In this document: positions 3,361-24,106 of the stretch, in pieces
Layout of the letters: every line of letters begins with the position of its first letter
Numbering within the stretch: the first letter of the stretch is position 1
Virus record (IMG/VR): IMGVR_UViG_3300009187_000027
Coordinates: 1 to 61,352 of that record
Length of the DNA: 61,352 nucleotides
Direction: 5' to 3' (one strand)
DNA from: a virus
Lineage: Duplodnaviria; Caudoviricetes
Notes under the pieces: generated by a model
What the model was told of the DNA's origin: nothing
Seen by the model: only the letters and a program-made list of their open reading frames with translations
Databases searched by the model: none
Translations under genes and position numbers: made by a program

Positions 3361-3386
3361 ATTCTAGGAATCAGGTCAACAGATCG
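3361..3386 (-). promoter_or_regulatory. Short-spacer promoter-like element A
   Basis: CGATCTG TTGACC TGATTCC TAGAAT. Confidence 0.6.
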
Positions 3387-3411
3387 GTCTCATTAAGATC
3401 GAGAAAAATTC

Positions 3412-4095
3412 TTAGAGACCCGCCGTGAACGTGCGTCCCGCCGTGACGAAAAACAGACGCACCAGAAAAGCACCCATCAGCGTGAGCATCAGGCTGCTGG
3501 GCTCTGGAATGGGATCGGGCGACGGGACTGCGGTCGCCGCCATCAAGGCCACCGAACTCCTGAGTCCCGTCTGCTGGAGCGGCTGCCTGATGAGGGACAG
3601 CAGCACAGAGCCAGTGCCAGCAGATACTTGTGCGCTCGCCCGGAAATAGGTCGTGGCGGAGACAATGGTGGCGAGGTCTCCGATGGCGACCCGAGCCCTC
3701 GCCTCGCCCGAGTAGCCGTAGAGCGAGACCTCCAGTGGCAGCAGCAGGTCTCGCGTCAGCGACAGGGTATACCCCTGACCGCTCGACACCGAATCAGGGC
3801 TCAGTGATGCGTATCCCAAGCCAGAGGACACCGTCTGGCCTCCGACAACGAACTGCGTCTGCTCGATGCCGAGCGAGCCCAAGGCGATTCGGGGGCTGCC
3901 CATGCTGATCGCGACGGCGGTGCCGCTCAAGTAGCCGCCCGTGCCCGAAAACGATGCGACCGTCGAGGCATTGTCGCCTGCCCCCCAGACGGCATAGTCG
4001 CCATAGAGGCTGGCTCCCCCGTTGTACTGCTCGACCGTGATGACATCAGCCGATGCCACCGCAGTGAGCGCAAGAAAAGCCCCGAGCAGACGCAC
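3412..4095 (-). CDS. PEP-CTERM sorting-domain surface protein
   Basis: Signal peptide MRLLGAFLALTAVASA; C-terminal IPEPSSLMLTLMGAFLVRLFF; AGGAGG RBS. Confidence 0.8.
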   Translation of the reverse strand: MRLLGAFLALTAVASADVITVEQYNGGASLYGDYAVWGAGDNASTVASFSGTGGYLSGTAVAISMGSPRIALGSLGIEQTQFVVGGQTVSSGLGYASLSPDSVSSGQGYTLSLTRDLLLPLEVSLYGYSGEARARVAIGDLATIVSATTYFRASAQVSAGTGSVLLSLIRQPLQQTGLRSSVALMAATAVPSPDPIPEPSSLMLTLMGAFLVRLFFVTAGRTFTAGL

Positions 4096-4144
4096 AGATC
4101 ACCTCCTTTTAAGGACACGACGCGATCCACTCGGGGCGCTATGC

Positions 4145-4978
4145 TTATGGGGCTTCATCCAGCGGCGGCGGCACCGGCACTGACTCGGTGAGTTGCGAGA
4201 AATCTATGTAGAAGCGGGCGGCGAGGAGAGGATTGCTGTGCCCGAGAAAGCGAGTGGCACTTCCCGGCATACGAGCCTCTAGGTGTGTGGCTGCCGAGCG
4301 TCTTAGCCACTGTATGGAGCCGTCTGCGATCCCGGCAGCCTTGCGAATTTTGCGAAACTCCCGGTGCATCTGGGTGGTCGAAATTGCCCAGCCGAAAAGC
4401 CTCCCGTCAGGGCTGATCTCGCCCAGCCGATGAAGCAGGTCTCTCGTCTTCTCTGAGATGGGACGCACCACCACCTGCCGGGTCTTGCCTGCGGTGACGC
4501 ACACAGCCCCTGAACGGATGTTCGTCCTCCGCAGGGCAAACAGGTCGCCACGCCTGAGTCCGGTCTCATAGCCGACTCGCAGAAAAGCCTCAAACCATAG
4601 GGCTCTCGGGCACCCAGACGGAGAAAATTTTCCTGTGGCCTCCGCCGATCTATTGACAAGCCGGATAAGATCGGATCGTGACCACGCGGGGACGGGCTCG
4701 CGGGGCACTCGGATGGCTGGGCACTTGGGTGGGTGGGCGATCAGCCCCTCCTCATAGGCCCACCTCCAGACAGCCACGATCATGCCTCGCCGGGCTGCGA
4801 GAGTGATCGGGCGATAGCGATTTCTCACGGAGGAGAGATGCGACCACACCAGATCACGGCTGATCGTCTCGCGGGTGATGCCCGCCTTCTCAAGGATGCG
4901 TCCAAGCGCCCGCATGTTGTGAGCGTACATCGCGCTCGTCTCGCGTGTTTTTAGGTATTGCTCGATTAGGTCTCGCAC
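4145..4978 (-). CDS. int: Tyrosine recombinase/integrase
   Basis: ETGLRRGDL (Arg I), GKT (Lys), QWLRRS (Arg II), LGHS, FY (Tyr); GTG start after GGAG. Confidence 0.88.
   Translation of the reverse strand: MRDLIEQYLKTRETSAMYAHNMRALGRILEKAGITRETISRDLVWSHLSSVRNRYRPITLAARRGMIVAVWRWAYEEGLIAHPPKCPAIRVPREPVPAWSRSDLIRLVNRSAEATGKFSPSGCPRALWFEAFLRVGYETGLRRGDLFALRRTNIRSGAVCVTAGKTRQVVVRPISEKTRDLLHRLGEISPDGRLFGWAISTTQMHREFRKIRKAAGIADGSIQWLRRSAATHLEARMPGSATRFLGHSNPLLAARFYIDFSQLTESVPVPPPLDEAP
4646..4671 (+). promoter_or_regulatory. Short-spacer promoter-like element B (antisense within int, facing the replication operon)
   Basis: CGATCTA TTGACA AGCCGGA TAAGAT. Confidence 0.55.
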
Positions 4979-5049
4979 TGCTAGACTCCACTGAACGCAT
5001 GTACATCTACATCTTTCTCTGACGGCGAGTGTTAAAAAGTTTTCCGCAC

Positions 5050-5970: not shown

Positions 5971-6646
5971 TGATCGTGAAGTGTGTGACCTCGATGGCAT
6001 TCCGGTGCGGACGGTGGTGCGTGACCACAGGCTGCGTCCCGAGACCGGGCACCTGCCCGCCAGCAGCAGCGAGTTCCTCGACCTGCTGACGGCAGCAATG
6101 TCGGCGGCTCGCCCAAAGATCAGTGAGATCAAGAAGACCACCAAGGGTGCGTTCGGTCGCTACGCCCCGCTGGATGTGGTGCTGGACGCAGTGACTCCAG
6201 CCCTCTCCGAGCATGGCCTCGTCCTTCGCAGCCGCACGATCATCGTCGGTGACGAGGAGTGGCTGGTCACCACCCTGTCCCATACGTCGGGGCAGTTTGA
6301 GCGGTCGATGTCGCGGATCGCTGGCAACCCCGGCGACTACCAGAAGCGGCTGGCTGCGGCGACCTACCTCCGCCGCATGCACACCTCCTGCCTCTGCGGC
6401 GTGGCTGCCGACAGCGACGAGGACGGTGCCGGTCTGGCCCCGGAAAAGCCCCGTGGCCCGACGCCGTTTGAGTTGGCCCGCAAAGCCATAAGTGAGGGTG
6501 GCACACCTCAGTTCCGAGCCATGTCGCTCGCCCGAGCAGCGGCATCCACCGCACAGGGCCGGATCACCGAGGCCCAGTTCGGCGAACTGAAGGCGATCCA
6601 CGACTCGCTGCTGCCCAAGGAGGAGACCGCCAGTGCTGACTCATGA
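5963..6646 (+). CDS. ERF-family single-strand annealing protein
   Basis: YAPLDVVLDAVTPALSEHGL, TTLSHTSGQ, ATYLRR, DEDG. Confidence 0.85.
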   Translation: MADDREVCDLDGIPVRTVVRDHRLRPETGHLPASSSEFLDLLTAAMSAARPKISEIKKTTKGAFGRYAPLDVVLDAVTPALSEHGLVLRSRTIIVGDEEWLVTTLSHTSGQFERSMSRIAGNPGDYQKRLAAATYLRRMHTSCLCGVAADSDEDGAGLAPEKPRGPTPFELARKAISEGGTPQFRAMSLARAAASTAQGRITEAQFGELKAIHDSLLPKEETASADS

Positions 6647-9092: not shown

Positions 9093-9741
9093 AGACATGT
9101 GGGCGATCATCGCCCTAGCATTCGCACTGGGATTTCTTTTCGCCGCGATGTGCCCTGCGGCGGAGCCCGAGACGCTGCGAGATGTGCTGTCGCTCCTGCC
9201 ACCGGAGGACATTCGTGCAGCCGCCGGGCCTGATGGCTGCAAGGTGACGCTGGCTCACGAAGCCACGCACTTCGTTAACTCCAAACTCAGTAAGCCGGGA
9301 GTTCGCGGGTTCTATCTCGGGGATGCAGATGTCTGGACGTTCCCGATCCCGTCACAAACTAAACTCGCGCACGTTGCAGAGGCGATCCCAAGGGAACTGC
9401 GTGGCAAGACCTACAAGACCTACCTCATCGACGCGCAGCAGTGGTGGCAGGACTGCCCGCTGTACCCGTTCGATGAAGCCGTCGCCTACTGGGCGGGGGC
9501 GAAGACCCGCATCGAACTCGGGTTGGCGAATCGGCAGGAGACCGAGCGGTTCGGCGTCGAGTTGCTGGTCTACAGCCAGCATGCCCTCGACCAGATCAAG
9601 CGGCGTGAGCCAGCGTCCTACCCTCACGCTGAACTGGATGAGTTCCTCGATGTCCTCGTCGCCCGAGCAAGGATCATCTGCCGCGAGTTCGACCGCCAGC
9701 CCTACGCCGAGTCACTGAGTGGCAGGGGGTGGATGGAGTGA
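9070..9741 (+). CDS. Exported or membrane-anchored HExxH protein (putative metallopeptidase)
   Basis: Hydrophobic N-terminus, HEATH, downstream FDEA. Confidence 0.55.
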   Translation: MSRRQDLRDMWAIIALAFALGFLFAAMCPAAEPETLRDVLSLLPPEDIRAAAGPDGCKVTLAHEATHFVNSKLSKPGVRGFYLGDADVWTFPIPSQTKLAHVAEAIPRELRGKTYKTYLIDAQQWWQDCPLYPFDEAVAYWAGAKTRIELGLANRQETERFGVELLVYSQHALDQIKRREPASYPHAELDEFLDVLVARARIICREFDRQPYAESLSGRGWME

Positions 9742-10112
9742 GCCGGAACCGCAGGCTGGCGGAGTACGCCAGCACACACGACCGCTGTGCCGTGTGCCAT
9801 TGGCCCGCGCACAAGCGTGAGTGGCGTCGGCAACTGCAAGTCCATCACATCTGCGGCAGGCGAGGCAAAGACCCGCACGACCACCGGAACCTACTGATGC
9901 TGTGCGACCTCGACCACGACGCCTACCACGACGGCGGAATTCCCGGTCGATCTGTTGACCTCGCCCTTATCCTGAAATGCAAAGAGCAAGAGGATGGTCT
10001 TGATCTTGAATATCTGGCGGCTCTTCGGCATCGGAAGTCGTTGCCAGCCGACCCCGTACTACGCATCCCTGACCCCTTCGCGACCGAGCGAATCACCAAC
10101 GCACACCTCTAG
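9738..10112 (+). CDS. HNH endonuclease
   Basis: CAVC...LQVHHI...NLLMLC..DH...H. Confidence 0.82.
   Translation: MSRNRRLAEYASTHDRCAVCHWPAHKREWRRQLQVHHICGRRGKDPHDHRNLLMLCDLDHDAYHDGGIPGRSVDLALILKCKEQEDGLDLEYLAALRHRKSLPADPVLRIPDPFATERITNAHL
9948..9973 (+). promoter_or_regulatory. Short-spacer promoter-like element C
   Basis: CGATCTG TTGACC TCGCCCT TATCCT. Confidence 0.55.
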
Positions 10113-10131
10113 ACCAAGGAAGGCAACGACA

Positions 10132-10509
10132 GTGAAGAGCAGCAGACAGAAGGGAGCCGCCGGGGAGCGGGAACTTGCCGAGGTCTTCCGCGAACTCGGC
10201 TACACGGCGAGGCGCACACAGCAGTACTGCGGTTCTGCTGGGGACGGCGACATCGTGGTCAACGAACTGCCGACGATCCTATGGGAGAGCAAACGTGTCG
10301 AGCGGCTCAACATCCATGAGGCTGTGCATCGAGTCGCCTACGATGCAGGCAGGACGGGCCAGATCGGAGCCGTCTGCCACCGCCGCAACGGCACCGAGTG
10401 GCTGCTGACCATCCGGCTCGCTGACATCCATCACTTTGCCGAGCGTGTGCATCTGGGGATGAAGCGCAGATGGGAGGGCAAGGATGCGCCGCAACCTGAG
10501 AGCGACTGA
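10132..10509 (+). CDS. Hjc-like Holliday junction resolvase
   Basis: SRQKGAAGERELA...GDI...ESKRVE. Confidence 0.8.
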   Translation: MKSSRQKGAAGERELAEVFRELGYTARRTQQYCGSAGDGDIVVNELPTILWESKRVERLNIHEAVHRVAYDAGRTGQIGAVCHRRNGTEWLLTIRLADIHHFAERVHLGMKRRWEGKDAPQPESD

Positions 10510-11682: not shown

Positions 11683-11738
11683 GTGCCGTCCATAAATAGG
11701 GGGAACGGATTCCCCGTTGGGCAGCACAGGGTGGTCGC

Positions 11739-12056
11739 ATGTACACTGGTCGGAAGTTCACGCATCCGCTGGATTGGATCGGGGGCAGGGACGCCCCCTT
11801 ACCCGACCGGATCGAGGCTCGCTCCCGCACCGCAGAACTGGTGTGCCTCATCCTGATCCTCGCCTTGATAGGAGCAGTCTATGGCGTCTGGCAATGGGCC
11901 TCGCGGTGGCGGCAAGCCTACGCGACGGCGGTCGCAGCGCGGAGCGTCATCGAATACGAGCCGCTCTCGGAAGCAGACCCAGCAGCAGGAGACGCCGCCC
12001 CCGGAAAGGGGAGTCGTGGCCTGTCTGGCCTTAGAGGCTGGAGATCGCGGCACTAA
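11739..12056 (+). CDS. Hypothetical membrane protein
   Basis: Single hydrophobic helix LVCLILILALIGAVYGVW. Confidence 0.5.
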   Translation: MYTGRKFTHPLDWIGGRDAPLPDRIEARSRTAELVCLILILALIGAVYGVWQWASRWRQAYATAVAARSVIEYEPLSEADPAAGDAAPGKGSRGLSGLRGWRSRH

Positions 12057-12207
12057 CCCCTGTCAGGGGTGTGATGCCCGAGCGGCGACGGTGCAGGTGG
12101 GCAGCACCGGGAGGCGTCTCCAGTGGCCCCTCTACTGCACCCTCTGCCACGAAAAGATGTGTGCCCGTGAGTGGCGTGACGCATCGTGGACTCGCTACAT
12201 GCGGTGA
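12016..12207 (+). CDS. Small zinc-ribbon protein
   Basis: CQGC and CTLC pairs; GGGGAG before GTG. Confidence 0.4.
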   Translation: MACLALEAGDRGTNPCQGCDARAATVQVGSTGRRLQWPLYCTLCHEKMCAREWRDASWTRYMR

Positions 12208-12210
12208 GTC

Positions 12211-12768
12211 GTGAGCCCATACACGCAGCGGCAACTCACGCCCGAGCAGAGTGCCAGAGCCGAGGACGCAGTCCGGTTTGTCGGGGTCTGCGTCCGCTCG
12301 TTCTTGAAGTCCTGCCCGAGTTATAGAAAGTTGGCGAGGGTCTGCGACTTCGATTCCGCAGCCCGCATGGCTGTGGTCGAGGCGTCCTTTACCTACGACC
12401 CGGCGAAGTCTCAGCCTCAGACGTACTACGGTTCGGCGGTGCGGCATGCCCTCCTCAAAGAGGTGCGCCGCTACCAGCGGAGCAGGGAGGGGGCTGACGA
12501 GAGAGTCTCGTTAGAGAGGGCCATGTCGGAGGCACCGGCACAGGCCCACCGGCAGGCAGGACTAGAGTGTCTAGCCTGCCTGCCGGATGAGGAACGCAGG
12601 CTGGTCGAAGCCCACGTTCTTGAGGGTCACTCGATGCTGGCTATCGGTCGCCAGATCGGCAGGGATTGGCGGACGGTCAAGGCACGACTGCGTCGGGCAC
12701 TACGCCGCCTGTCGGACTGTGTCGCGAGCGGGCAAACGACTGCGGATAACCGTAGCCCCTCGCCTTGA
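12211..12768 (+). CDS. Phage-encoded sigma-70-family (ECF-sized) sigma factor
   Basis: Region-2-like AVVEASFTYDPAK..TY...VR; region-4 HTH LPDEERRLV...GHSMLAIGRQIGRDWRTVKARLRRA. Confidence 0.82.
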   Translation: MSPYTQRQLTPEQSARAEDAVRFVGVCVRSFLKSCPSYRKLARVCDFDSAARMAVVEASFTYDPAKSQPQTYYGSAVRHALLKEVRRYQRSREGADERVSLERAMSEAPAQAHRQAGLECLACLPDEERRLVEAHVLEGHSMLAIGRQIGRDWRTVKARLRRALRRLSDCVASGQTTADNRSPSP

Positions 12769-13456
12769 TCGCGTCACGCACCGTTCGCCACGACCACCTC
12801 TTGGAGTTCGACCGCTTCCAGAACAGGGGGGCGTCCCCCGCTCTGGTCGCGATCTTCTGGAGGGACATCCCCTCGCCCAGCCAGCCAGCCATCTGGTCGA
12901 TGCGTGACCGCTCCTCCAGATCGGGCAGTAGGTAAGAGCCCTTGCCCGTGCCGTGCCTCGCCCAGCCGAACGGTATCTCCACGCACCTGCGACCAACCGG
13001 GACTCCCTTCGACTTCTTCAGCGCCATCACCTCGCGAGTCCGTTCGCTGGCGTACCTCCGCTGCATCTGAGCCAGAGCCAGCATCAGATGCAGCCCGAAC
13101 TCACCGAACGCAGTGGTCGAGTCGAACCCGATGTCGAGGGCTACGAACTCCACGCCTTTGGCCTTCAGAAGTTGGAGCGTGTTCACGCCACCCAGCAGGG
13201 AGCGGGACATGCGATCCAACTTGCTGACCACGATCACATCACCGGGCTGGGCCAGCACCCAGACCTTGGCACCCTCGATGCGGTCGGAGAAGTCCTTGCT
13301 CCCCGAGACCGCCGCATCGTAGTACCAGCCGCCGAGGGTGTAGCCCTTGGGCTGGAGGGTCTGCTGCCAGTAGCCCTCGCATGCCTTCCGCTGCACCTCC
13401 TCAGTTGCACTCTGCTTGTTGGTCGAGTGCCGACCGTAGCAATAGCAGACGCTCAT
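12677..13456 (-). CDS. Serine recombinase (resolvase domain plus short recombinase-like C-terminus)
   Basis: YGRHST..Q, D..VSG, GDVIVVSKLDRMSR, PFGW. Confidence 0.9.
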   Translation of the reverse strand: MSVCYCYGRHSTNKQSATEEVQRKACEGYWQQTLQPKGYTLGGWYYDAAVSGSKDFSDRIEGAKVWVLAQPGDVIVVSKLDRMSRSLLGGVNTLQLLKAKGVEFVALDIGFDSTTAFGEFGLHLMLALAQMQRRYASERTREVMALKKSKGVPVGRRCVEIPFGWARHGTGKGSYLLPDLEERSRIDQMAGWLGEGMSLQKIATRAGDAPLFWKRSNSKRWSWRTVRDAIKARGYGYPQSFARSRHSPTGGVVPDAVVP

Positions 13457-13848
13457 CGCATGGCCCTCCGCCTCTGGCGTTTCATCTCCATCCGCTGATC
13501 CCACCACTGGTCGTTGTCGTATCCGACGAACGCACCAGTTCTGGAGTCGATGTAGTAATCATCGAACTTCCACGCCGCCCTTCCCGCCGGGCCAAGCACA
13601 ACCTCCCTGCCGTCCAACTGCCCGGCCCAGTAGCCCGACCACGGGGTCGCCACCTCCTGCGGTGCCGAGTTCCACGGCAGGTCAGGGAACGGGACATCCA
13701 AGTCCCCGGCACATGCCGCACCGCCGAGCAGGCAGAGCAGCACCACGGGGATGCTATGCCGCGACTTGTGGCACAGCATGTAGTAGATCACGCCGTGCGA
13801 CAGAACCATCATCACGAACCAGCGAACGTCCTCAATGAACTCAGTCAT
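13453..13848 (-). CDS. Hypothetical membrane or exported protein
   Basis: GAGG RBS, hydrophobic segments, coupled to recombinase start. Confidence 0.55.
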   Translation of the reverse strand: MTEFIEDVRWFVMMVLSHGVIYYMLCHKSRHSIPVVLLCLLGGAACAGDLDVPFPDLPWNSAPQEVATPWSGYWAGQLDGREVVLGPAGRAAWKFDDYYIDSRTGAFVGYDNDQWWDQRMEMKRQRRRAMR

Positions 13849-13856
13849 CTCACACC

Positions 13857-14501: not shown

Positions 14502-14502
14502 C

Positions 14503-16008
14503 TCAGCCTCCCCTCTTTGCGAGTTCACAAACCTGCATCCACGACGGGATCGGGTACGCCCCGTCCCGCTGCCTGACCAGAGCCACGATCACCCTCGACT
14601 TCAGCCGCTGCTTGGGATAGGGCGTGATGCCATCGGTGATCAGGATCATGCAGTCAGGCTTGAGTTCCCGCTCGCATGCCTCCAGCACCACGCCCATGTC
14701 GGTGCCGCCACCGTGGCCCACCTTCATCGCCTTCGCAGACCTCACGACATCGCGAGAGTGGACTCGCGTGTCGCCCTGCACCACGGTCACCTGTCCGAGA
14801 CGCTTCACCCCCTTCTCGATCACGCCGAGGGCACGGTCACGCAACTCGCTCTCATACCCGAGTTGCATCGAGCCCGAGGTATCCAGCACCACCACCGCAG
14901 ATGGCGTCTGCTTGACCACGCCACGCAGGCGAGGCCCGTCCTCCTGCTGGCGACGAGAGAGCCGCCGCAGGGTGAAGTCGGGCCTGCCCACCGGGCTCGC
15001 AACCGCACGGCAGATGCGGGACAGGAGCAGATCGAACGGGTCAACCTGCCGGGTGAACCGCAGGTCGAGAGCCTCGACCAGTTGGCTGGGGATCGAGCCG
15101 GGCGAGCCAGCCTCGATCTCCTTGATCTTCTCCGCCAAGTCCTTGTCGGCAGCCCACTCACGCTCATCGTCGGTGCCCGAGTCGGGCTCCTCCCATGAAC
15201 GAGGGATGCCGTCAGCACTGCTGCTGCCCGGCGGGTCTACGTCTGCCTCATTCCCGCCATCGTCAGGGCTATCTCCGCCCTCCGCTGCTGGCCCGCCCTT
15301 GCCACCGTCACCATCCTCCGCATCATCGTCACCGCCCGCTGATGAACCGTCGCCTTCATCGTCATCCTCATCGTCGCCCTCGCCGGGCTGCGAGTCGGCA
15401 TCGCCATCGCCGTCATCATCTTCGCTCGATTCCTCCTCGCTCTCGGAGGGAACACCTTCGCCATCCCCGTCTTCGTCCCCGTCCCCGGCATCGTCGGACT
15501 CGTCCTGCTCGCTATCGTCATCACCGTCTGCATCTGACTCGGACTGATCGTCATCGCTCTGCTCCTCATCGTTAGGCTGCTGACGCAGCAGTTCGTAGTA
15601 CTCGGTCGCTGACAGGTTCGAGGGGAACCCGTCATCCTCTGCCACCATCACGCCACTCGGTGCATCGCTGATCCACTTCTTGAGGATTCCATTCACGACA
15701 TAGTCGCAGGCCACATTCCAGAGCCGTGCATTCTCGGCGGTCGGCTTCTCGCCAAGCACCCGTCGAGCGATGCGGGCATGGCCCAGCACCACATGCAGCA
15801 CCTCATGCAGGATCACGAACGCACCTGCCGGGGTGCTGATGCGGTCGGCAAACGCCGGGTCGAAGTAGAGATTCCCCCGAGCGTCCACCGCCGCAGTGCC
15901 CAGCCCCTTCCTCTCGTAGGTGGGCATGCCGTAGACCCGAGCCGCGAGATACGGCAGGATCAAACGGGATGCGATCTTCCAAGCGGTCACCTTCTCACGC
16001 GGTTCCAT
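14503..16008 (-). CDS. DUF2201-type metallopeptidase-like/VWA protein
   Basis: HEVLH, WNVACD..VN, acidic linker, MIDAS DTSGSM, GGGTD, ITDG. Confidence 0.9.
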   Translation of the reverse strand: MEPREKVTAWKIASRLILPYLAARVYGMPTYERKGLGTAAVDARGNLYFDPAFADRISTPAGAFVILHEVLHVVLGHARIARRVLGEKPTAENARLWNVACDYVVNGILKKWISDAPSGVMVAEDDGFPSNLSATEYYELLRQQPNDEEQSDDDQSESDADGDDDSEQDESDDAGDGDEDGDGEGVPSESEEESSEDDDGDGDADSQPGEGDDEDDDEGDGSSAGGDDDAEDGDGGKGGPAAEGGDSPDDGGNEADVDPPGSSSADGIPRSWEEPDSGTDDEREWAADKDLAEKIKEIEAGSPGSIPSQLVEALDLRFTRQVDPFDLLLSRICRAVASPVGRPDFTLRRLSRRQQEDGPRLRGVVKQTPSAVVVLDTSGSMQLGYESELRDRALGVIEKGVKRLGQVTVVQGDTRVHSRDVVRSAKAMKVGHGGGTDMGVVLEACERELKPDCMILITDGITPYPKQRLKSRVIVALVRQRDGAYPIPSWMQVCELAKRGG

Positions 16009-16045
16009 CGCAGTCTCCTTTCTGTTGGTTGTCGTTCCGAAACAA

Positions 16046-17173
16046 TCAGCCAATCGTCGTTCGCTTCTTCAGTTCGATCAGCGGCTTGAGGGCGGCAGCC
16101 TTGGGGGCGTAGCCCTTCTCGCTGGCGATCCGCTGGAGTTCCCCGGTGTGGCGGAGTGCCAGTTCGGGGGACGCCCTCTCACCCACGGTGGCGAGGAACT
16201 TCGCCGCCGCATCCCATCGGTCGGGGCTGAAGTCCCTGCCCGAGAGGGTCGCCATCACCGCACCCGTCACGGTGATCGTCCGGTCGGGACGAGCCGGGTC
16301 GTGGGCGAACGTGACGAAGCCGTCGAGCAGGTCAACGGGGTTGACCAGATCGTTGGCAGCCCGCCATGTCACGAACTGAAGCGTGGCGTTGTCGCCAACG
16401 CAGCCCTCGACCATCGACCGCACCATCTTGCTGCCGACCGTCATGTCGCAGCCGCATGCATCGGCGGCGGCGAGGCAGCGGACAGCGTTCGACCACGACC
16501 GTTCAGTGGGGTACGCCCACTGCGAGTCATCCTCTGGAACAACGGAGTCGAGGTTGTCCGACGCCGTCAGGAAGTCAGCGAGCAGGCCACCCCACCGCTC
16601 GACGCAGCCGCTCTGATCCCAGTTGGTGGGCAGGGTCGGGAACACGGGGTCTTCCCACTTGAGGGTGCGGAGACCAGACAGCCACGCCTTCCTATCCTTC
16701 TGCCACTGGGCGTGGAAGAACCTGTTCACCGTGGGCAGGGACAGCGGCTGCCCGTTGGGCGTGATCGCCGCCGGGTTGGTCGCCGCGATCACCACCGTAT
16801 CCCTCGACAAGTGGAAGTCACCGACCCGCAGGTCTTGAATCAGCGTGAGGAACGCTGCCTGCACGGCAGGTGCGACCGCACACAGTTCATCGAGGAAGAG
16901 CAGGCCACCCGGAGTGAACAGAGCCTCCGCCCAGCCCATCGGCAGCATTCGGCAGAGACCCTTCGCGTTGTCGGGCACCGGCAGACCGCCGATGTCCTCC
17001 GGGGAACACTGCGTCCCGAGCAGCGTGACGAACCGACGCTTCAGCGAGCGGGCCATCGCGTTGATGGTTGCCGTCTTGCCCGCACCCGGCGGGCCGACGA
17101 GCAGGACGGGGACGCCCGCCATCGCAGCGATGAGGGCGGGAAGCATCGGGTGATCGAACACAATCGCAAACAT
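16046..17173 (-). CDS. MoxR-like AAA+ ATPase
   Basis: GPPGAGKT, LLFLDEL, AATNP, NRF; adjacent VWA gene. Confidence 0.9.
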   Translation of the reverse strand: MFAIVFDHPMLPALIAAMAGVPVLLVGPPGAGKTATINAMARSLKRRFVTLLGTQCSPEDIGGLPVPDNAKGLCRMLPMGWAEALFTPGGLLFLDELCAVAPAVQAAFLTLIQDLRVGDFHLSRDTVVIAATNPAAITPNGQPLSLPTVNRFFHAQWQKDRKAWLSGLRTLKWEDPVFPTLPTNWDQSGCVERWGGLLADFLTASDNLDSVVPEDDSQWAYPTERSWSNAVRCLAAADACGCDMTVGSKMVRSMVEGCVGDNATLQFVTWRAANDLVNPVDLLDGFVTFAHDPARPDRTITVTGAVMATLSGRDFSPDRWDAAAKFLATVGERASPELALRHTGELQRIASEKGYAPKAAALKPLIELKKRTTIG

Positions 17174-17251
17174 GTGAGAGACTCCTGTGGGAACCATCGA
17201 ACCCAGCGGGGAGGAACACCCTCCCCGCAAAACAATCAGCCAATCGCCAGA

Positions 17252-18118
17252 TCAGGCGGAGATATCCGCCAGTTCCAGCATCGCGAACTTCGTGTCGAGT
17301 GCCTCGACCACCATCGCGACCTCATGCAGACCGACGCCGAACATCTGCTGGTAGGCAGCGATCTTCTGCTTCGCGTTCTCGATGTCATCCTTCCTGCGGG
17401 CGATGCCGCCCTTGGTCATGTCGTGACCGGCGAGCAGGTCAGCCTCCAGTTCCGACCGCATCGCAGCGACCTCCGCCGTGAACGCCCGCACCGCCTCGCG
17501 AGCGATGTCGGGGTTGTCCAGCAGCGGGAACCGGGCCACCGACAGACGCACCTCCGAGTCGGGGTTCGCTGGCCCCTCCTCGATCTGCCTTGCCAGATCG
17601 GTGAACGTCTGGAGCAGACCACCAGCGAGGAAGTACACGCCGCCGCCGTCACGCAGCGACGTTGCCGACCACGCCTTGGTCATGGCCCTGACGAGCAGGC
17701 TGCCCACGGTGGACGCCTCGTAGTAGTCGAGCCGATCCCGGTAGATCGTCTCGATCTCCTGACCACCCGTGATGGGCAGGCCCGCGAAGGTGACCGAGAC
17801 CCGGTCGCTGGCGTCCGCCTTGACCGTGAACTGGTAGTCGTGGGTGTTGCTCTCGACCCCCTTGGTCTCACGCAGCACCTCGAAACCCAGCACCGCCCGG
17901 TCGAGCGGCACGATCTCCCACCTCGACCTCTTCCCCGCCTTGCCGAGGTGCTGCCTGATCGCACGACCGAGGGCCATCGCCCTCTTCTCCCGGCGGGGCA
18001 GCAACTTGCTGAGACCGAGGGACATGAACGCCCGGTCGAACACCGTCTTGCGGCAGCGACCGCTGTTCAGAACGACGAGAGCCCCATCGGCGGACGGGGG
18101 GATGGAAAAAGAACGCAT
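17252..18118 (-). CDS. Conserved hypothetical protein upstream of MoxR/VWA (DUF6744/DUF3150-like)
   Basis: LRDGGGVYF motif, C-terminal coiled coil, gene context. Confidence 0.55.
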   Translation of the reverse strand: MRSFSIPPSADGALVVLNSGRCRKTVFDRAFMSLGLSKLLPRREKRAMALGRAIRQHLGKAGKRSRWEIVPLDRAVLGFEVLRETKGVESNTHDYQFTVKADASDRVSVTFAGLPITGGQEIETIYRDRLDYYEASTVGSLLVRAMTKAWSATSLRDGGGVYFLAGGLLQTFTDLARQIEEGPANPDSEVRLSVARFPLLDNPDIAREAVRAFTAEVAAMRSELEADLLAGHDMTKGGIARRKDDIENAKQKIAAYQQMFGVGLHEVAMVVEALDTKFAMLELADISA

Positions 18119-18171
18119 GGGAAAACTCCTTGATGGAGGTGAAGAAAACAAAGGCATCACGCGATGCCAAT

Positions 18172-18202
18172 AAAAAAGGGACGCACCACAACGGTGCATC
18201 CC
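18172..18202 (-). terminator. Intrinsic terminator
   Basis: GGGATGCACC-GTTGT-GGTGCGTCCC followed by TTTTTT. Confidence 0.75.
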
Positions 18203-18228
18203 AGTGTCCAACACAGGTCAACAGATCG
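18203..18228 (-). promoter_or_regulatory. Short-spacer promoter-like element E
   Basis: CGATCTG TTGACC TGTGTTG GACACT. Confidence 0.5.
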
Positions 18229-18247
18229 ATCCGAATCAATCAGCCAA

Positions 18248-18775
18248 TCAGCAACTCGGCAGTGCCGAGAACACTGCACTCGCCGCGATGTCCTTGCCCT
18301 GCCGCTGAACCGAGCGGAGGGTGGAGCCCCGGCAGAAATTCGACTGCCTCTCCCCGCACTCATCGACCCGAGAGAGGTACTTCACGAACACGGTCTTCAC
18401 CTTCACGCCCTTGACCGCTCGCTCCATGACACGCATCTCCACGGTGCGGATGGTGCCACAGCCCTCGATCACCTCGACCTCGATCACCCTGCCGCCGAGG
18501 CCCACGCCACGAATGTCTGCCCGCCAGCAGAGCATGTGCCACTCGGGCTGGTCGTGCATGCAACGCACGGTGTAGGTGGCACCCATGATCGCCCTCTTCC
18601 AGCCGATGCGACCGAACTTCTTCCAGCCCTCCTCAGTGGAGAGGCTGGCCTCGCATCGCGACAGCAACTTGGTGCGGGTCACGGCGAACTTCGTGCCCCC
18701 ATACCAGTGGAAACCGCCCATGTTTGGGCTCGTCGTGATCCACCACCTCGACTTGTCTCGCGTCTTGCCCATCAC
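18248..18775 (-). CDS. Hypothetical protein
   Basis: Coupled to upstream stop; own stop fused to the 13-mer repeat. Confidence 0.65.
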   Translation of the reverse strand: MMGKTRDKSRWWITTSPNMGGFHWYGGTKFAVTRTKLLSRCEASLSTEEGWKKFGRIGWKRAIMGATYTVRCMHDQPEWHMLCWRADIRGVGLGGRVIEVEVIEGCGTIRTVEMRVMERAVKGVKVKTVFVKYLSRVDECGERQSNFCRGSTLRSVQRQGKDIAASAVFSALPSC

Positions 18776-19179
18776 TAGCCCTCCCCGGATGTGTCAATGG
18801 TCACGTTGCCGAACTTCAATTGCCCGTCCTCGCTCTCGCTGACAAAAGGGAACGGGATGTCCACGATCTGCCCCAGTTTCTTGACCTTGGCCTTCGTCTT
18901 TCGGTCAAGGTGCGAAGCCTTGACGCAGCCGATGGTTCCAGAGTCAACGCTGTACTCCCGACCCTCGTTGTCCTCGTAGATCCCGTCGCCATACGCGGTG
19001 CCGTGATAGGCCACCTCGATGCCGCCCTTCAGAACGAACCTGCCCTCAAAACATTTGTTTCGATTGGGCCCGGTTCGGATTGGGTACATGAGTTTCAGCA
19101 ACTCGTCCCACTGTGCGTCGGTCAGCACATAGCACAGATCACCGACGTAGTACCTTCCTTCAGGCATTCGCTCGCTCAT
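18775..19179 (-). CDS. Conserved phage hypothetical protein (DUF4241-like)
   Basis: YYVGDLCYV...TAYGDG.Y...VDSGTIGC; GGAGG RBS. Confidence 0.7.
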   Translation of the reverse strand: MSERMPEGRYYVGDLCYVLTDAQWDELLKLMYPIRTGPNRNKCFEGRFVLKGGIEVAYHGTAYGDGIYEDNEGREYSVDSGTIGCVKASHLDRKTKAKVKKLGQIVDIPFPFVSESEDGQLKFGNVTIDTSGEG

Positions 19180-19269
19180 CTCGTTGTCCTCCAGAAACAC
19201 AGCGACCCCGGTCAGGTAACGCACCTGCCGGGGTCGCTGTTGGTTGTGTCTTCCGAATCAATCAGCCAA

Positions 19270-19509
19270 TCATGCGATGCCGACGATCTCCATCGCCCGC
19301 TCCGCATGGTCTCTCTCGCACCACGCTACCGCCTCCGCCTTGGTCTTGACCAGCGGCGGGTAGATCGCCTTGTTGCCCTCATGCCTCGCCGCCTGCCAGC
19401 CCTTGAAGGGGGCCGGTCGGAGGGCATAGGTCACGCCACCTCCAGCATCCGCCTCCCACCAGCGTCGATCCGAGCCGATGTAGTACCGCCGCCTCCAACT
19501 CAGCATCAC
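19270..19509 (-). CDS. Hypothetical protein
   Basis: GGAGG RBS; stop fused to repeat. Confidence 0.65.
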   Translation of the reverse strand: MMLSWRRRYYIGSDRRWWEADAGGGVTYALRPAPFKGWQAARHEGNKAIYPPLVKTKAEAVAWCERDHAERAMEIVGIA

Positions 19510-19859
19510 TCACCTCCCTTCACGATGGAGTCCACCTCGTCGGTCATCGAACGCAGTAGGGTGCGGGCAGCGTCAGCCACCTCGCGGTGCCGCTCGTAGT
19601 CCCGCTCGATGCAGTCGGTCACCCGCTCAACGAGCCAGTGAACCCAGCGATCCCCGTTGCAAAGTTGCACTTGCCGGTGCAACTCACGCAGCATGGCGAT
19701 CAGCGGGTTCTTGCCAACGAACCCGTCCTCCCGCATCCACTGGCGGATTGCATCAATCTGCCGGTACACGCCGACTTCTGTGAACGCCTCAGTCTTCGTC
19801 CACTTCACGAACCTCTCGACCATCGCATCGCTAACGTCATACGTTGAACGCTTCGCCAT
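19506..19859 (-). CDS. Hypothetical protein
   Basis: AAGGA RBS downstream of repeat. Confidence 0.7.
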   Translation of the reverse strand: MAKRSTYDVSDAMVERFVKWTKTEAFTEVGVYRQIDAIRQWMREDGFVGKNPLIAMLRELHRQVQLCNGDRWVHWLVERVTDCIERDYERHREVADAARTLLRSMTDEVDSIVKGGE

Positions 19860-19909
19860 TGCATCATCCTTTCCTGTTGGGGTTGAATCGATCCAGAACA
19901 ATCAGCCAA

Positions 19910-20497
19910 TCACGAACGCTTTGCCTCCAGCACCACCCACTTCTGTGCCGCATCTTCCAGCGACATTGCGAAGTAGTTCTCGCCACGCAGCACGACCTGT
20001 TCCAGCACCCGCCCCGCCTCATCGCAGGTGGCGGCGACGATCTCGTTGAACTCAGCCAACGATTCGACGCTGCCGAGGCACAACTTCAGGTTGAGCGTCT
20101 GGCCCATCAGCGGAAGGGCATCCATCAGATCACCGAAACTGTCATCGCCCCGGTCGAATGAGAACCGAGCCTTCTCGCAGGCGGCGTATGCCTTGCGCGT
20201 GTAGTGCGACCACGACAGGGCGAAGTGAACCGCCGCCGCGAAATCGCCACCACCCACCACGGCACACCTGAAGAACTCGTCCGCCGCCGCCTCAACGTAG
20301 CCCTCCTTCCGATGCGTCATCGTGTCGAGCAGCACCTCGCGGAACCGCACGACCACATGCCAGAAGTGTTCCGGCTGCATGGGAGGGACGCCACGCTTGA
20401 AGTCCATGAAATTCTCATCGAACTCAGACCGGGCATCGCTGAACGCCTTGGCCTGCTTCATGATCTTGCTGGTCAGGATGCTCGTTGCTTTCGTCAT
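19910..20497 (-). CDS. Hypothetical protein
   Basis: AAGGAG RBS; stop fused to repeat. Confidence 0.7.
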   Translation of the reverse strand: MTKATSILTSKIMKQAKAFSDARSEFDENFMDFKRGVPPMQPEHFWHVVVRFREVLLDTMTHRKEGYVEAAADEFFRCAVVGGGDFAAAVHFALSWSHYTRKAYAACEKARFSFDRGDDSFGDLMDALPLMGQTLNLKLCLGSVESLAEFNEIVAATCDEAGRVLEQVVLRGENYFAMSLEDAAQKWVVLEAKRS

Positions 20498-20541
20498 CGT
20501 CAGTCTCCTTTGGAGGGTGTGAATCGAACCCGTCAAACCAA

Positions 20542-21105
20542 TCAGCCACGCGGACGGCAGTCCCGAAACATCCAGACCGGGGAGGACTTGGTGCCGCCCA
20601 CCTTCATCGCACTGTGCATGGGCACGCCGAGCGCGCTGCGGCACAGTTCGTACACCTCGTAGTCGCTGCCCGCGTGGTGGCGTGGGCTGGACGGGTGATT
20701 GAGGATCACCATGCCGCCGTCACGCACGGCACGTCCGATCTGTTTGAGCGTTTCACGCATCATCGCCACCGAAGACTGCACGTTCATCACGTTCGATGCG
20801 AAGACGAGGTCGTACTCACCGGGGTGGATGATCAGCCCCGTGTAGTTCTTGCCGAAGTCGTACTCGTGAACCTTCGCCTCGGGGTGAGCCTTGCGGATCA
20901 TCTCCGAATGCAGGAAGTGCCCGTCCTTCCCCGGCTTCCCGGCACCGAAGTTGAGGATGTTGTGGAACCCGATGCGGTTGCCGACAGAATCGGCGTGTAG
21001 CAGGTCGATCACGACACGGGGGACAAGAGCGCGGGCACCAACGGCACCAGCACTACGGGCAGTGGCATTGGCACGAGCGATGTAGTCGAGGGTCATCGAT
21101 TTCAT
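20542..21105 (-). CDS. Class I SAM-dependent methyltransferase-like protein
   Basis: ILNFGAGK motif I; YDLVFASNVMNV. Confidence 0.7.
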   Translation of the reverse strand: MKSMTLDYIARANATARSAGAVGARALVPRVVIDLLHADSVGNRIGFHNILNFGAGKPGKDGHFLHSEMIRKAHPEAKVHEYDFGKNYTGLIIHPGEYDLVFASNVMNVQSSVAMMRETLKQIGRAVRDGGMVILNHPSSPRHHAGSDYEVYELCRSALGVPMHSAMKVGGTKSSPVWMFRDCRPRG

Positions 21106-21190
21106 TGGGGAGCCTCCGAAAACGCAGCGACCCCGGCGGGAAACGCTCCAGCCGGGGCCGCTGCAATGGGTGTTCAGATCAATCAGCCGA

Positions 21191-21670
21191 TCAGTCGCTG
21201 ATCACCACCGAGGTGACCTCGCATGCCACCATCCCTGCGTCGATGCCGAGGGCCAGCAGCACAGCCACCGCTGCATGGCACCCCGTTAAGGCGGCGATTG
21301 CCTCGTAGCAGTGGGCAATCGAGAGCATCAGCACAGCCACGCCGATGGCCCCGGTGATGCGAGCGAGGCTGTAGTGCCGCCGCCGATGGGTCAGCCCCGC
21401 CACCTTGCCCAGCAGCAGGACGAGCAGCGGGATGACGGCACCCAGCACGACCGCCGCCCACTGCAAACCCTCCGGGGCATGCCGCGATCCCGCCCACGCA
21501 TTCAGTGCCATCGACAGCACCGCCGAAACGGTGACGTAGAGCAGGCACCAGCGGGCCAGACCGTCACGCCGCCGGATGGTGGTGCGGGGGGGCTGCGTCT
21601 TCCGACGCCGAGACTTCTTCTCGGTGGTGACGGTGGTGACGGTGGGAATCCTGTTGATCGTGTCGATCAT
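21191..21670 (-). CDS. Four-helix membrane protein (DUF2637-like)
   Basis: Four hydrophobic segments, LS..N and GID motifs. Confidence 0.6.
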   Translation of the reverse strand: MIDTINRIPTVTTVTTEKKSRRRKTQPPRTTIRRRDGLARWCLLYVTVSAVLSMALNAWAGSRHAPEGLQWAAVVLGAVIPLLVLLLGKVAGLTHRRRHYSLARITGAIGVAVLMLSIAHCYEAIAALTGCHAAVAVLLALGIDAGMVACEVTSVVISD

Positions 21671-21764
21671 GTGGTGAACCTCCTGAAACGCGACAGGCCA
21701 CGAACTGGAACGCCCAGCCGTGGCCTGCCGCAGTGTGTGTGTCCGAACCAATCAGCCGAACGGA

Positions 21765-22742
21765 TCAATGGCAGCCGATAGCCACCACTCCGGGGAAGAC
21801 GAACGTGCCATCGGCTTTCTTCGCACCGCATGCATGGGCGTTCTCGCCCTTGTGCGTCACGCAGGCACCGCACTTGCCCGAGCAGGACAATGCCCGCTCG
21901 TAGCCCAGAGCCCGAGCGGCTTCACGCACCGCCCGGTGATACTCAGGATCGTCGTAGCGGTCGTAGCCCTTGGCCTTCCGCATGAACTTCTTGTCGATGT
22001 ACACCGACAGAAACCGCTCACGGGTCACGGGCAGACCGAGCATCTTCTCCATGAATTCGGCATCGCCGTCGTAGATCGATCCGCTCGACACGTTTAGAAC
22101 GTAGTTGTCGGGGAACGCGGCACCCGTGGCATGCCAATCCATGAACAGCCCCCACGACTTGGAGTACCCGTAGCACAGAACGTCGGGCCGCTGGCGGAGC
22201 ATGTTCCACCAGAATTGCATGGTCGAGAGGGAATCGAAATCGCCGTCAACGTACAGCCGGAACGTGATGTCCACGGGCAGCACCTTGAATGCGTCGATGA
22301 TCGCCCGCCGATTGAACCGCAGCAGCAGGGTATTCATGAGTTGCCGCAGATAGCCGCCGGGCGTCCGCCATGCTTTCTTGGAGTAGCACCACTTGGCACA
22401 ATCGCCCGCACCTGGGCATGTGACGATGGGCAACGCCGAGAACGCCACGAACGGCAATTTCATGTTGCCATGCATGGCGAAGATGGCGAACGGCAGACCG
22501 CCGTCCCGCATGCACTGGACGAACCGCAGCATCTCTTCACGCCATCCCCGAGGGGTAGCGGAACCGGCACGGCGGGCAGCCTTGCGATTCCTCTTCTTCT
22601 GCGATGCACCGGGCAGTGTGATCGGCAGAGTGAGAGCGACAGCCTCGATGCATGCCAGTGCATCATCGAGCGTTTCAGCCCGCATGCACTGCCATGCCAG
22701 ATCGAGGGCACGTTGATTCGAGAACTTGGGAGCGTAGCCCAT
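21765..22742 (-). CDS. GP88-like Cys-rich (Fe-S/radical-SAM-like) protein
   Basis: GNMKL...TCPGAGDCAKWCY, FRLYVDGDF, YGYSKS, C-terminal CSGKCGAC. Confidence 0.7.
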   Translation of the reverse strand: MGYAPKFSNQRALDLAWQCMRAETLDDALACIEAVALTLPITLPGASQKKRNRKAARRAGSATPRGWREEMLRFVQCMRDGGLPFAIFAMHGNMKLPFVAFSALPIVTCPGAGDCAKWCYSKKAWRTPGGYLRQLMNTLLLRFNRRAIIDAFKVLPVDITFRLYVDGDFDSLSTMQFWWNMLRQRPDVLCYGYSKSWGLFMDWHATGAAFPDNYVLNVSSGSIYDGDAEFMEKMLGLPVTRERFLSVYIDKKFMRKAKGYDRYDDPEYHRAVREAARALGYERALSCSGKCGACVTHKGENAHACGAKKADGTFVFPGVVAIGCH

Positions 22743-22835
22743 GTGAGCCTCCATGAAACGCGACAGCCCGCAGCATGGAAACGCTCCACGCTGCGGGCTG
22801 TCGGGGTGTGCAAAACAATCAGCCGAATGAACGAA

Positions 22836-23162
22836 TCAGCGGGGGCGGGCAACGACCTCATGCCCGCCGCGATTCACCTCGATCATGCCGCCCTCGGCGG
22901 CGGCATCGCAGAGGGCGTCGAGGCAGCCCAAGGAGATGATCTTGTCGGTGTAGTCCTCGCCGCCCCTGCAATACTTCATCGAAGCATGCTGTTCCCCGAC
23001 GGCGAGACTGCGGAGCGTCGGAGACACACAATGCTCGATCACATCGTCGCTCCACGTTCCACTCCAATGCTGTTGAATGTGGTCGAGCAGTTGGGAGAGG
23101 TTGCAGACGTATCGGCGGACGCTGTGGGTCTGATGCTCAACGGTGACGAGAAGGAATCGCAT
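22836..23162 (-). CDS. Hypothetical protein (first gene of the accessory array)
   Basis: AGGAGA RBS downstream of repeat. Confidence 0.65.
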   Translation of the reverse strand: MRFLLVTVEHQTHSVRRYVCNLSQLLDHIQQHWSGTWSDDVIEHCVSPTLRSLAVGEQHASMKYCRGGEDYTDKIISLGCLDALCDAAAEGGMIEVNRGGHEVVARPR

Positions 23163-24033
23163 GGTGGTGTTCTCCTGTTTGGGTGTTTGGGTCTCACAGA
23201 ACAATCAGCCAATCCCAAAAGCCCACTAGGCTTGTCGCATGCTGCGACGGTCTTGCCATAAACCTTGTGCGGGGTCGTGGTGACACGGGCCGCGATGGCT
23301 GGTCGAAAATGGATGACGGTTTGGGTCTTCGCTGGGACATAAACCAAGCGAGAGACTTTGGGATCGCGGTACGCACATTCGGCCCCGCGTTCCGTTGCGG
23401 TCGTGCGGAAGTCCTTGCCCCGCCGCGAGTTGCGTCCGACCCCCGGCCCGGCCCCCCGCCGCATCGGCCCCCATATAACGCTCGCCCTCGCTATTTTTCC
23501 CCAAAAAACCTCATCGCCGCAGCGCATCTAAACCAAGCCCTCTCGCTGCCCGCCAAAAGCCCGATTGCTGAACAGGCGTTCACTTACCCTCCCCAGACCT
23601 GAACGCCCGTCTAATCGCATCCTAGAGCCTCACAGAGGCATGCCCGTCTTCGCCACCCTCTCTCCACAACATTGGCATGGAGGAGACATGGAGTACGCAG
23701 AAGAGTGGGACGAGCAGGACGATGCCCTCAGTGAACTCATCGAGTTCCTCTGAGCCGCTTGATCGCGACCGTCGCTACTTCGGAGACCCGTATGACCTCT
23801 TCACCGGCAGCCAGCCGTTCGGTGACCCCAACGCATGGCTCCCAGAGTCGGTGGACGCCAAGTCGCACTCGTTGCTCTATCCGCTGGGCATGGGCTGGTC
23901 GGAGTTCCGCCCTCCTGTGATCGAGCCCGCAGCCCCTGCGGAGCCGTCGAGCATTTCCCTTGCCATCTTCGCCATCGCCATCCTCTGGCTCATGGCTGTG
24001 CGTGATTTCATCCTCGCAAGAATTTTTGACCGT

Positions 24034-24059
24034 CGATCTGTTGACCTCACTCGTAGGCT
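24034..24059 (+). promoter_or_regulatory. Short-spacer promoter-like element D, upstream of ssb
   Basis: CGATCTG TTGACC TCACTCG TAGGCT, ending 47 nt before the ATG. Confidence 0.6.
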
Positions 24060-24106
24060 GGGTGAGAACGGGACGCGAGAGCCCGTGACACCCAGAGGAG
24101 AGAGCA

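Follow-up and report, generated by a model that had tools for sequence, protein, structure and literature searches.

How is a promoter-like element to be read when its two hexamers stand only 7 nucleotides (nt) apart? The window analysed here is the whole of IMG/VR virus record IMGVR_UViG_3300009187_000027 (61,352 nt), and it contains five copies of such an element: a TTGACC or TTGACA hexamer followed, after a spacer of exactly 7 nt, by a -10-like hexamer. A sequence-only reading had proposed a non-canonical promoter class with this fixed spacing, read by a host or phage sigma factor or through an activator box, or else an operator. It had named loss of the spacing in homologous phages as the observation that would count against the class. 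The spacing is retained in those phages, and comparison of their sequences supports the class, the short form alternating with canonical 16-17-nt promoters at orthologous positions. The sites are tentatively interpreted below as second-class, factor-dependent hybrid promoters.

The five short-spacer sites

The pattern CGATCTRTTGACM was matched five times in the window against 0.34 expected, and none of 100 dinucleotide shuffles reached five. All the copies reported by the sequence-only reading were recovered, each at its position and on its strand:

3361..3386, minus strand: A1, CGATCTG TTGACC tgattcc TAGAAT (box 3374-3386), non-coding
4646..4671, plus strand: A2, CGATCTA TTGACA agccgga TAAGAT (box 4646-4658), antisense within the integrase open reading frame (ORF), at codons S-D-L-I-R-L-V-N-R-S
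9948..9973, plus strand: A3, CGATCTG TTGACC tcgccct TATCCT (box 9948-9960), within the 3' part of the HNH ORF 9729-10112
18203..18228, minus strand: A4, CGATCTG TTGACC tgtgttg GACACT (box 18216-18228), non-coding
24034..24059, plus strand: A5, CGATCTG TTGACC tcactcg TAGGCT (box 24034-24046), in the 3' end of ORF 23677-24159

The spacer varies in sequence and is constant in length (7 nt in 5/5), as had been proposed. TTGACC/A is present at every site and TAnnnT at four of the five, the remaining one (A4) reading GACACT. Since TAnnnT occurs in this genome at only 0.0020 per position, its presence at one fixed offset in 4/5 sites is far beyond chance. The exact 14-mer CGATCTGTTGACCT is common to four copies, and the copy at 4646 deviates from it at 3/14 positions; relaxation of the 11-mer core to two or fewer mismatches gave no gain (19 matches, 22 expected). 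The box has no dyad symmetry. Both hexamers are of the canonical sigma-70 type (TTGACA-like and TAnnnT-like). On reading the sites, no consistent -10-like hexamer was found 17 nt after TTGACM, and a spacer of 7 nt stands at all five where one of 16-18 nt would be canonical.

A1 is situated between the stop of a PEP-CTERM-like gene (3412) and gene 2484-2993(-), 367 nt ahead of the latter. A2 is directed at the operon that runs from exoVIII through Erf and a helicase to the sigma factor gene; it lies 357 nt before exoVIII and forms the distal partner of a canonical promoter at 4958 in a tandem pair. A3 is found just 5' of the RusA-like gene and of the operon whose last gene encodes the sigma factor. 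A4 lies 85 nt before gene 17252-18118(-), upstream of MoxR-type AAA/VWA genes, and is directly preceded by a copy of another repeated motif (motif B, described in the last section). The end of A5 is 47 nt from the SSB start (24107). A3 and A5 both encode R-S-V-D-L in frame. The earlier statement that the sites point into co-oriented downstream genes stands as to orientation (5/5 co-oriented with the next gene) and needed correction as to setting: the copies at 4646, 9948 and 24034 overlap ORFs, that at 3386 is distant from its gene, and that at 18228 is followed by hairpins. An AATT-type tract had been seen upstream of four copies and was confirmed there (4/5, the exception being 18228). The accessory features are:

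3404..3413, minus strand: A/T tract AAGAATTTTT, UP-element-like, upstream of A1 (coordinates counted from the sequence output)
4621..4633, plus strand: A/T tract GAGAAAATTTTCC upstream of A2
9936..9943, plus strand: GGAATTCC upstream of A3
24018..24027, plus strand: A/T tract AAGAATTTTT upstream of A5
18178..18202, minus strand: terminator-like hairpin of 10-11 pairs followed by TTTTTT, its first base directly after the A4 second hexamer (z -3.8)
18153..18168, minus strand: second, weaker terminator-like hairpin, ahead of the start codon at 18118
24060..24093, plus strand: stable hairpin from the base after the A5 second hexamer to just before the ssb ribosome-binding site (z -5.1)
4958..4987, plus strand: canonical promoter TTGCTC-N18-TAGACT, immediately upstream of exoVIII
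12211..12768, plus strand: ECF/sigma-28-like sigma factor gene (185 aa) at the end of the operon that 4958, A2 and A3 serve, and a candidate reader of the sites or of a late motif

The idea that a 5' hairpin generally belongs to the element was considered and dropped, such hairpins being significant at A4 and A5 only (2/5 sites). In the relative G001 a terminator-like hairpin precedes the orthologous A4 site instead of following it as in the window.

Spacing in related phages

Relatives were gathered through portal, SSB and sigma alignments. More than 570 portal relatives were obtained; a single-protein search with the AAA ATPase returned none. None of five complete relatives contains the exact box, and the 13-mer box is private to the window phage. 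Among the matches listed for the exact 14-mer in IMG/VR there is a single match per contig, consistent with chance. The 7-nt spacer after TTGACM was searched for as TTGAC-Nx-TAnnnT with x = 8, the other spacings from 3 to 23 serving as controls. Six genomes gave 4, 2, 3, 1, 1 and 2 matches at x = 8, against 0 to 3 at any other spacing, and 14 genomes together gave 18, against 0 to 9. After removal of the near-duplicates G008 and G009 from these 14, the 12 non-redundant relatives (597 kb) retained 16 matches, compared with a mean of 2.65 and a maximum of 9 over 20 other spacings; x = 8 was the sole enriched spacing. A further 22 fragments, mostly from the structural region, added two matches, both before ssb, against two control matches; with so few added from structural sequence, the element belongs to the early region. 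In more distant relatives, 54 loci covering the early region (700 kb, duplicates kept) were enriched for both x = 17 (20 matches) and x = 8 (11), and a third value, x = 13 (10 matches), was largely due to one coding orthologue. The early regions of the distant relatives G004 and G005 contain no short-type site, although the sigma gene is present.

The short form was found at the following positions:

before ssb: G000, G001, G002, G003
antisense inside int, towards exoVIII: G000, G001, G002, G003, G006 and locus L355
before rusA: G000, G002, G006
before HNH: G017
before the homologue of gene 17252: G000, G001, G002, G003 and L355

Four of these positions are conserved (ssb, int antisense, rusA and gene 17252). 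Eighteen sites were tabulated, and two further short sites in L355 lie beyond them. The spacer is 7 nt in 16 of the 18 and 6 nt in the other two, both of which are in G003 and read GATAAT. As in the window, spacer sequences vary between orthologous sites and their length is constant.

The two spacings replace one another at the same gene starts. Among 23 distinct ssb upstream regions, 13 have the canonical form TTGnnn-N16-18-TAnnnT, three the short form, none both and seven neither. At the int position G016 retains TTGACA, but its -10 hexamer (TAAAGT) is 17 nt away, and in G004 and G017 the antisense promoters within int are of the canonical form. Before exoVIII both classes occur in tandem in G001, G002, L355 and the window, the short form about 300 nt upstream of the canonical one. 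The TAAGAT hexamer inside int is encoded by the Asp-Leu codons GAT-CTT in four phages, the integrases of which are ~36% identical to that of the window. As CTT accounts for only 9.9% of Leu codons, its retention there points to selection on the DNA rather than on the protein. Two observations at other positions belong beside these. Upstream of the gene 2484 homologue in G002 (~14800-15050, plus strand) there is a TTGACG with a -10 hexamer TATAGT 19 nt away. In L364 (781) and L373 (5517) the 7-nt form stands before a similar leader (..attcactcgc..), another interchange of the two spacings.

In the 18 tabulated sites the second hexamer is followed by G in 13 and begins with T in 12 and with G in four, the two G003 sites reading GATAAT one base closer. 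Upstream of TTGAC, A is found at -5 in 16/18 sites, G at -6 in 12/18 and C at -3 in 13/18. The close clade shows a G-R-A-W-C-like block 2-3 nt before TTGAC and 15-16 nt before the second hexamer; the int site of G002 has TTGAGA 16 nt before TAAGAT. The short sites of the distant clade (L370/L372 and L364/L373) lack the upstream TnGAnC block. Within each phage the 5' extension is internally uniform, namely CGATCTG in the window, GA(A)CGC in G002, GGAC(G/T)CA or GAACCTA in G001 and TCTGGAAAAS in G003. Uniformity within a phage together with difference between phages is as expected if the extension co-evolves with a phage-encoded binding protein. The GATC-N4-GACC pseudo-palindrome, which had been suggested as an operator, finds no support in the comparison, since relatives lack GATC along with everything else in the 5' half of the box. 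If the second hexamer occupies -12 to -7, the whole box would lie at about -32 to -20 and its TTGAC part at about -25 to -20.

Canonical promoters are scarce in the window. A canonical scan gave three weak matches in 60 kb, against ~10 in shuffles, and the looser pattern TTGnnn-N16-18-TAnnnT gave four, one of which alone is both intergenic and co-oriented. This is the promoter at 4958, the window's only plausible canonical one; it is orthologous to TTGACC/T-N17-TACACT in relatives and is proposed as the immediate-early promoter. As regards the host, the 13 portal relatives matched in genome collections were phage-sized contigs from bins of six different groups and mixed phyla, which do not establish a Planctomycetota host. 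In a Pirellulaceae bin with related phage contigs, TTGACn stands 16-18 nt before a -10 hexamer in 8/31 tRNA upstream regions and at 7 nt in 0/31, and genome-wide the short pattern is rarer there (68 matches) than its reversed control (159). Short spacing as the host-standard architecture was dropped on these counts. The check for TTGAC-N8-TAnnnT enrichment suggested by the sequence-only reading thus came out positive in related phages and negative in this bin. Since canonical promoters exist in the same phages, the part of the earlier proposal that relied on the standard host holoenzyme alone is unlikely, and the tRNA promoters of the bin tell the same way. Canonical promoters at the same positions in other relatives and elsewhere in the same phages mark the short form as a second promoter class and not the host standard.

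Readings of the element

Four things are established: the elements themselves, the constancy of their spacing, the fact that they are conserved at the starts of orthologous genes, and their occurrence alongside canonical promoters. That transcription starts at the sites, in what order and under which reader is drawn from them, the temporal scheme from gene order only. We favour, with confidence somewhat short of an even chance, the reading that the five sites are second-class, factor-dependent hybrid ('middle'-type) promoters of replication/recombination units. The host holoenzyme would read a -10 of the primary-sigma type, (T/G)AnnnT, usually followed by G, and the upstream A/T tracts would act as UP-like helpers. 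The usual -35 contact would be replaced by the box, with its invariant TTGAC(C/A) and phage-specific 5' extension. This box, set at a constant distance from the -10, may be bound by a phage-encoded specificity protein produced from the single canonical promoter at 4958; the protein would either form a bridge to sigma region 4 or remodel it, as happens in T4 sigma appropriation and in PafBC sigma adaptation. The sites would then drive delayed-early or 'middle' transcription units. The reader is best taken to be a phage protein, either an activator with a geometry like that of T4 MotA or PafBC or the conserved ECF-like sigma.

The strictness of the spacing argues for a polymerase contact rather than simple occlusion. 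Taken with the coexistence of canonical promoters and the uniformity of the extension within each phage, it suggests a dedicated phage-encoded reader that touches the polymerase. Such a reader, combined with a box position like that of MotA or PafBC sites, places the hybrid promoter first among the readings. The gene class and the position of the sites also match known hybrid promoters (PafBC and T4).

Several points weigh against this reading. The sites of relatives were collected with the TTGAC/TAnnnT pattern, so that hexamer invariance among the 18 is partly by construction, and the sites are few, two to five per phage. Inside int the TTGAC is also favoured by conserved Val-Lys/Asn codons, and the int position alone is therefore no proof that the hexamers are paired. 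Two terminator-like hairpins come directly after A4, an odd arrangement if this promoter serves the next gene. No MotA, AsiA, WYL or other activator-like protein was recognised in Pfam and PHROGs scans of 84 ORFs and a relaxed Pfam scan of 27 small ORFs, from which remote homologues may escape. It would, moreover, be a coincidence for an activator box to have the -35 consensus TTGAC(A/C) as its sequence.

PafBC-dependent sites have the motif form tTGTCRgtg-8 nt-TAnnnT, which differs from the sequence found here. PafBC is a host WYL-domain activator, and a WYL match was found for none of the phage ORFs. In the part of the source available (PMC8635444), the mycobacterial PafBC hybrid promoters have a canonical -10 and an element at -23 to -28 with no -35; the TTGAC part of the box described here would stand at a similar place (about -25 to -20). 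For T4 middle promoters the accessible text of PMC2988021 gives a MotA box (a/t)(a/t)(a/t)TGCTTtA at -35 to -26, 12 +/- 1 bp from the -10, and describes them as serving replication/recombination genes, often in tandem with early promoters, with UP elements able to help. As portrayed there, they are alike in these genes, in the tandem arrangement and in keeping a host-type -10 with a phage-specific box at a fixed short distance in place of the -35. They are unlike in sequence and spacing, the sites here having TTGAC with its 5' extension at 7 bp and no MotA box; nor was any relative of MotA or AsiA recognised in the scans of the window ORFs. By analogy, then, the element would function like T4 middle and PafBC hybrid promoters, although it fails their defining sequence and protein features.

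A further reading is a new sigma-70-family promoter geometry. A region-4-type helix-turn-helix would read the -35 consensus TTGAC one helical turn closer than usual, near -23, beside a normal -10, the domain belonging either to the host sigma, repositioned by a phage protein, or to the phage small sigma; 7 as against 16-17 nt would then sort two temporal classes across an environmental phage family. We regard this as possible but doubtful. Were a region-4-type domain to read TTGAC at -23, the geometry would be new.

The phage sigma factor (12211-12768) may also read the sites by itself, with region 4 on the box and region 2 on (T/G)AnnnT in a compact geometry, in which case A2 and A3 would provide positive autoregulation. 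Among the window proteins it alone can be recognised as a transcription protein. Against TIGR02937 its score is 42.4 bits, just missing the cut-off of 42.9, and it has further matches to Pfam region 4 and to the SigK, WhiG and RpoE structures. It is found in every relative covering the region (33-59% identity), and its gene ends an operon under a canonical promoter, so that the sigma would be made first. A putative recognition helix RDWRT(V/I)K is present in G000, G001 and G002, which have like extensions (of the G-R-A-W-C type), as opposed to VQWQTVK in G003 with TCTGGAAAAS, a correspondence that extends over four phages only. G as the first base of the second hexamer (4/18, plus two GATAAT) is unusual for primary-sigma promoters. 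Yet TTGAC and TAnnnT followed by G are primary-sigma hallmarks, and G004 and G005 have kept the sigma with early regions devoid of the short-type site. Region 4 of sigma-70-family members is held on the beta-flap, which gives spacers of ~15-19 nt, ECF sigmas included, and this counts against the phage sigma. ECF-sigma promoters have a GGAAC-type -35 about 16-17 nt upstream of a CGT-type -10. The G-R-A-W-C-like block lies at 15-16 nt before the hexamer in the close clade only, and the -10 here is TAnnnT, not of the CGT type. A separate late-gene motif, gCCATAA, fits the role of a phage sigma better. In the accessible part of PMC8948821, phiEco32-like phage sigmas use other motifs, a single element tAATGTAtA or GTAAtg-16-aCTA, on middle/late or late genes. 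Those phages are alike in being podoviruses with a small divergent sigma, with distinct promoter classes for host and phage sigma as portrayed there, and the window encodes an SU10-like portal and adaptor; they are unlike in that the genes served here are of early type and the hexamers primary-sigma-like and 7 nt apart. On balance we consider direct reading by the phage sigma rather unlikely.

The late motif GGGCCATAAGCC is exact at 27951-27962 and 52900-52911 (plus strand) and also occurs at about 35250 (plus strand), just upstream of structural genes. In several close relatives (loci L123-L146) gCCATAA stands 10-14 nt before the portal ribosome-binding site. GGGCCATAAGCC/gCCATAA is a candidate single-element late promoter and possibly the target of the phage sigma. 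An inverted repeat, CTTATGGC-N6-GCCATAAG (27938-27959), overlaps the late motif in the divergent region between gene 26529-27920(-) and a CAP-domain gene. Directly before the sigma gene, ORF 11881-12207(+) encodes a Cys-rich, zinc-ribbon-like protein (CxxC ... CxxCHxxxC), a possible anti-sigma or sigma partner, and a similar ORF precedes the sigma in G005. Clade-specific early genes were considered as adaptor candidates, but the comparison was too insensitive; the zinc-ribbon ORF seemed clade-specific and yet is also found in G005.

The sites may instead be weak ordinary host promoters, with a -10, a G-rich discriminator, UP-like tracts and in some cases a poor -35 (TnGAnC) 15-16 nt upstream, the box being the operator of an immunity repressor or other regulator that switches all the early units at once. 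The phage has an integrase, and a repressor with a common operator in the early promoters would be expected. A 14-mer identical in four copies is more than any sigma contact needs, and the extensions differ between phages as immunity specificities do. The same asymmetric site does recur in early promoters and differs among relatives. The preferences for G, A and C upstream of TTGAC give a weak -35-like TnGAnC at 15-nt spacing, with TTGAGA at 16 nt in the G002 int site. However, a repressor site needs no fixed distance from the -10, whereas 7 nt is kept in 16/18 sites. The part common to all phages is exactly the -35 consensus core, the distant-clade short sites have no TnGAnC block, the box is without dyad symmetry, and domain scans of the window ORFs recognised no repressor-like helix-turn-helix protein. 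The stoperators of cluster A mycobacteriophages (L5 gp71) are asymmetric 13-14-bp repressor sites with TTGAC(A) at their core. They are scattered over the genome in the direction of transcription, and one overlaps the -35 of the early promoter; they number ~20-30 and keep no fixed distance from a -10. Here the copies number five, and from phage to phage they keep a constant distance from the -10 hexamer. We judge the operator reading unlikely.

That the sites are not promoters at all, but recombination sites of a serine or tyrosine recombinase, coding by-products or the 5' parts of terminator/insulator units, is highly improbable: three of the five copies overlap ORFs (with R-S-V-D-L shared by A3 and A5), A4 adjoins a strong terminator-like hairpin and a serine recombinase gene lies between the inverted pair A3/A4, but A1 and A4 are non-coding, relatives retain only the two hexamers and their distance and no peptide, hairpins are significant at only 2/5 sites, and all sites are co-oriented with downstream genes and replaced at the same positions by canonical promoters in other relatives.

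Invertase sites have dyad symmetry, and that candidate was dropped for its absence from the box. Sigma-54 promoters (-24/-12) likewise have two elements about one helical turn apart near the start site, with GG and GC defining; these are missing from the sites (GG at -24 and GC at -12 in none of the five), no sigma-54 gene is present, and the candidate was rejected. A T7- or N4-like phage polymerase was looked for with no Pfam RNA polymerase match, and among eight large proteins a crude motif search turned up a single DEDGD, although a divergent enzyme could escape.

The phage and the meaning of the two spacings

The window is a complete uncultured podophage of ~61 kb (the whole IMG/VR virus record; CheckV completeness 100%). 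A terminal direct repeat (1-315 / 61038-61352) is identical at 309/315 positions, with six mismatches, and an ORF from 59911 runs on in frame into 2-2545, so that the record is circularly closed or terminally redundant. Terminases of cultured phages are only ~24% identical to that of the window. The gene modules are:

4145-4996/5089, minus strand: integrase, with exoVIII, Erf, helicase, HNH, RusA and SSB the recombination/replication module
12211-12768, plus strand: small sigma factor gene, the transcription module
12677-13507: serine recombinase gene, between the inverted pair A3/A4, with the MoxR-type AAA and VWA genes the leftward operon
podovirus structural module: large terminase, SU10-like portal and adaptor, collagen-like fibres

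The integrase ORF is a tyrosine integrase (Pfam PF00589). The window encodes no tRNA genes and has no Rfam family match, and an Atlas look-up of a conserved 110-aa early protein returned unnamed clusters only. GATC occurs 412 times in the whole window, about twice the 212 expected from composition. Gene 3412-4095(-) is moron-like and encodes a predicted secreted protein with a PEP-CTERM-like C-terminal sorting signal (Pfam PF07589, E 0.035, below cut-off), which hints at a host with exosortase; none of the fetched relatives has a homologue. The HNH ORF (9729-10112, plus strand) and the RusA-like ORF (9994-10509, plus strand) overlap by ~118 nt in different frames, and relatives align to the two parts as one continuous stretch; the overlap may be due to a frameshift, to a RusA start at an internal position or to an error in sequencing. 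The 472 nt from 23205 to 23676 are non-coding and form a divergent control region; CATAAACC / CTAAACC motifs are repeated there on the plus strand, and it has no canonical promoter.

Motif B, TTGGCTGATTG(T/A)TT(C/T)GGA, occurs nine times when up to three mismatches are allowed (0.12 expected), always on the minus strand and at junctions between genes of the leftward operon (16036-23212):

16053, 17243, 18247, 19269, 19909, 21190, 21759, 22826 and 23212, minus strand: motif B copies

Six copies viewed in context lie ~30-70 nt before the next start codon, with a CA-rich leader following in 4/6, and TGA stops fall inside the motif. Variants are present in G001 (CTGATCGGCTGAnTGTTTCGGA) and G002 (TGCGGCTAGTAGTTCTAG, five copies). 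Motif B may represent a different class of promoter or else a signal acting at the RNA level.

Word searches of open-access text returned no description of a short-spacer (7-nt) class. Spacing is among the firmest rules of bacterial transcription, and here the same two hexamers interchange between 7 nt and 16-17 nt at orthologous gene starts of a single phage family. If the short form is active, a second regulatory class would have been made from host promoter parts by shifting one box a helical turn. This would also suggest that an adaptor awaits discovery or that the phage sigma is employed in an unusual way. The signature TTGAC-N8-(T/G)AnnnT with a phage-specific 5' extension would be usable to annotate early/middle units in these abundant uncultured ~60-kb phages.

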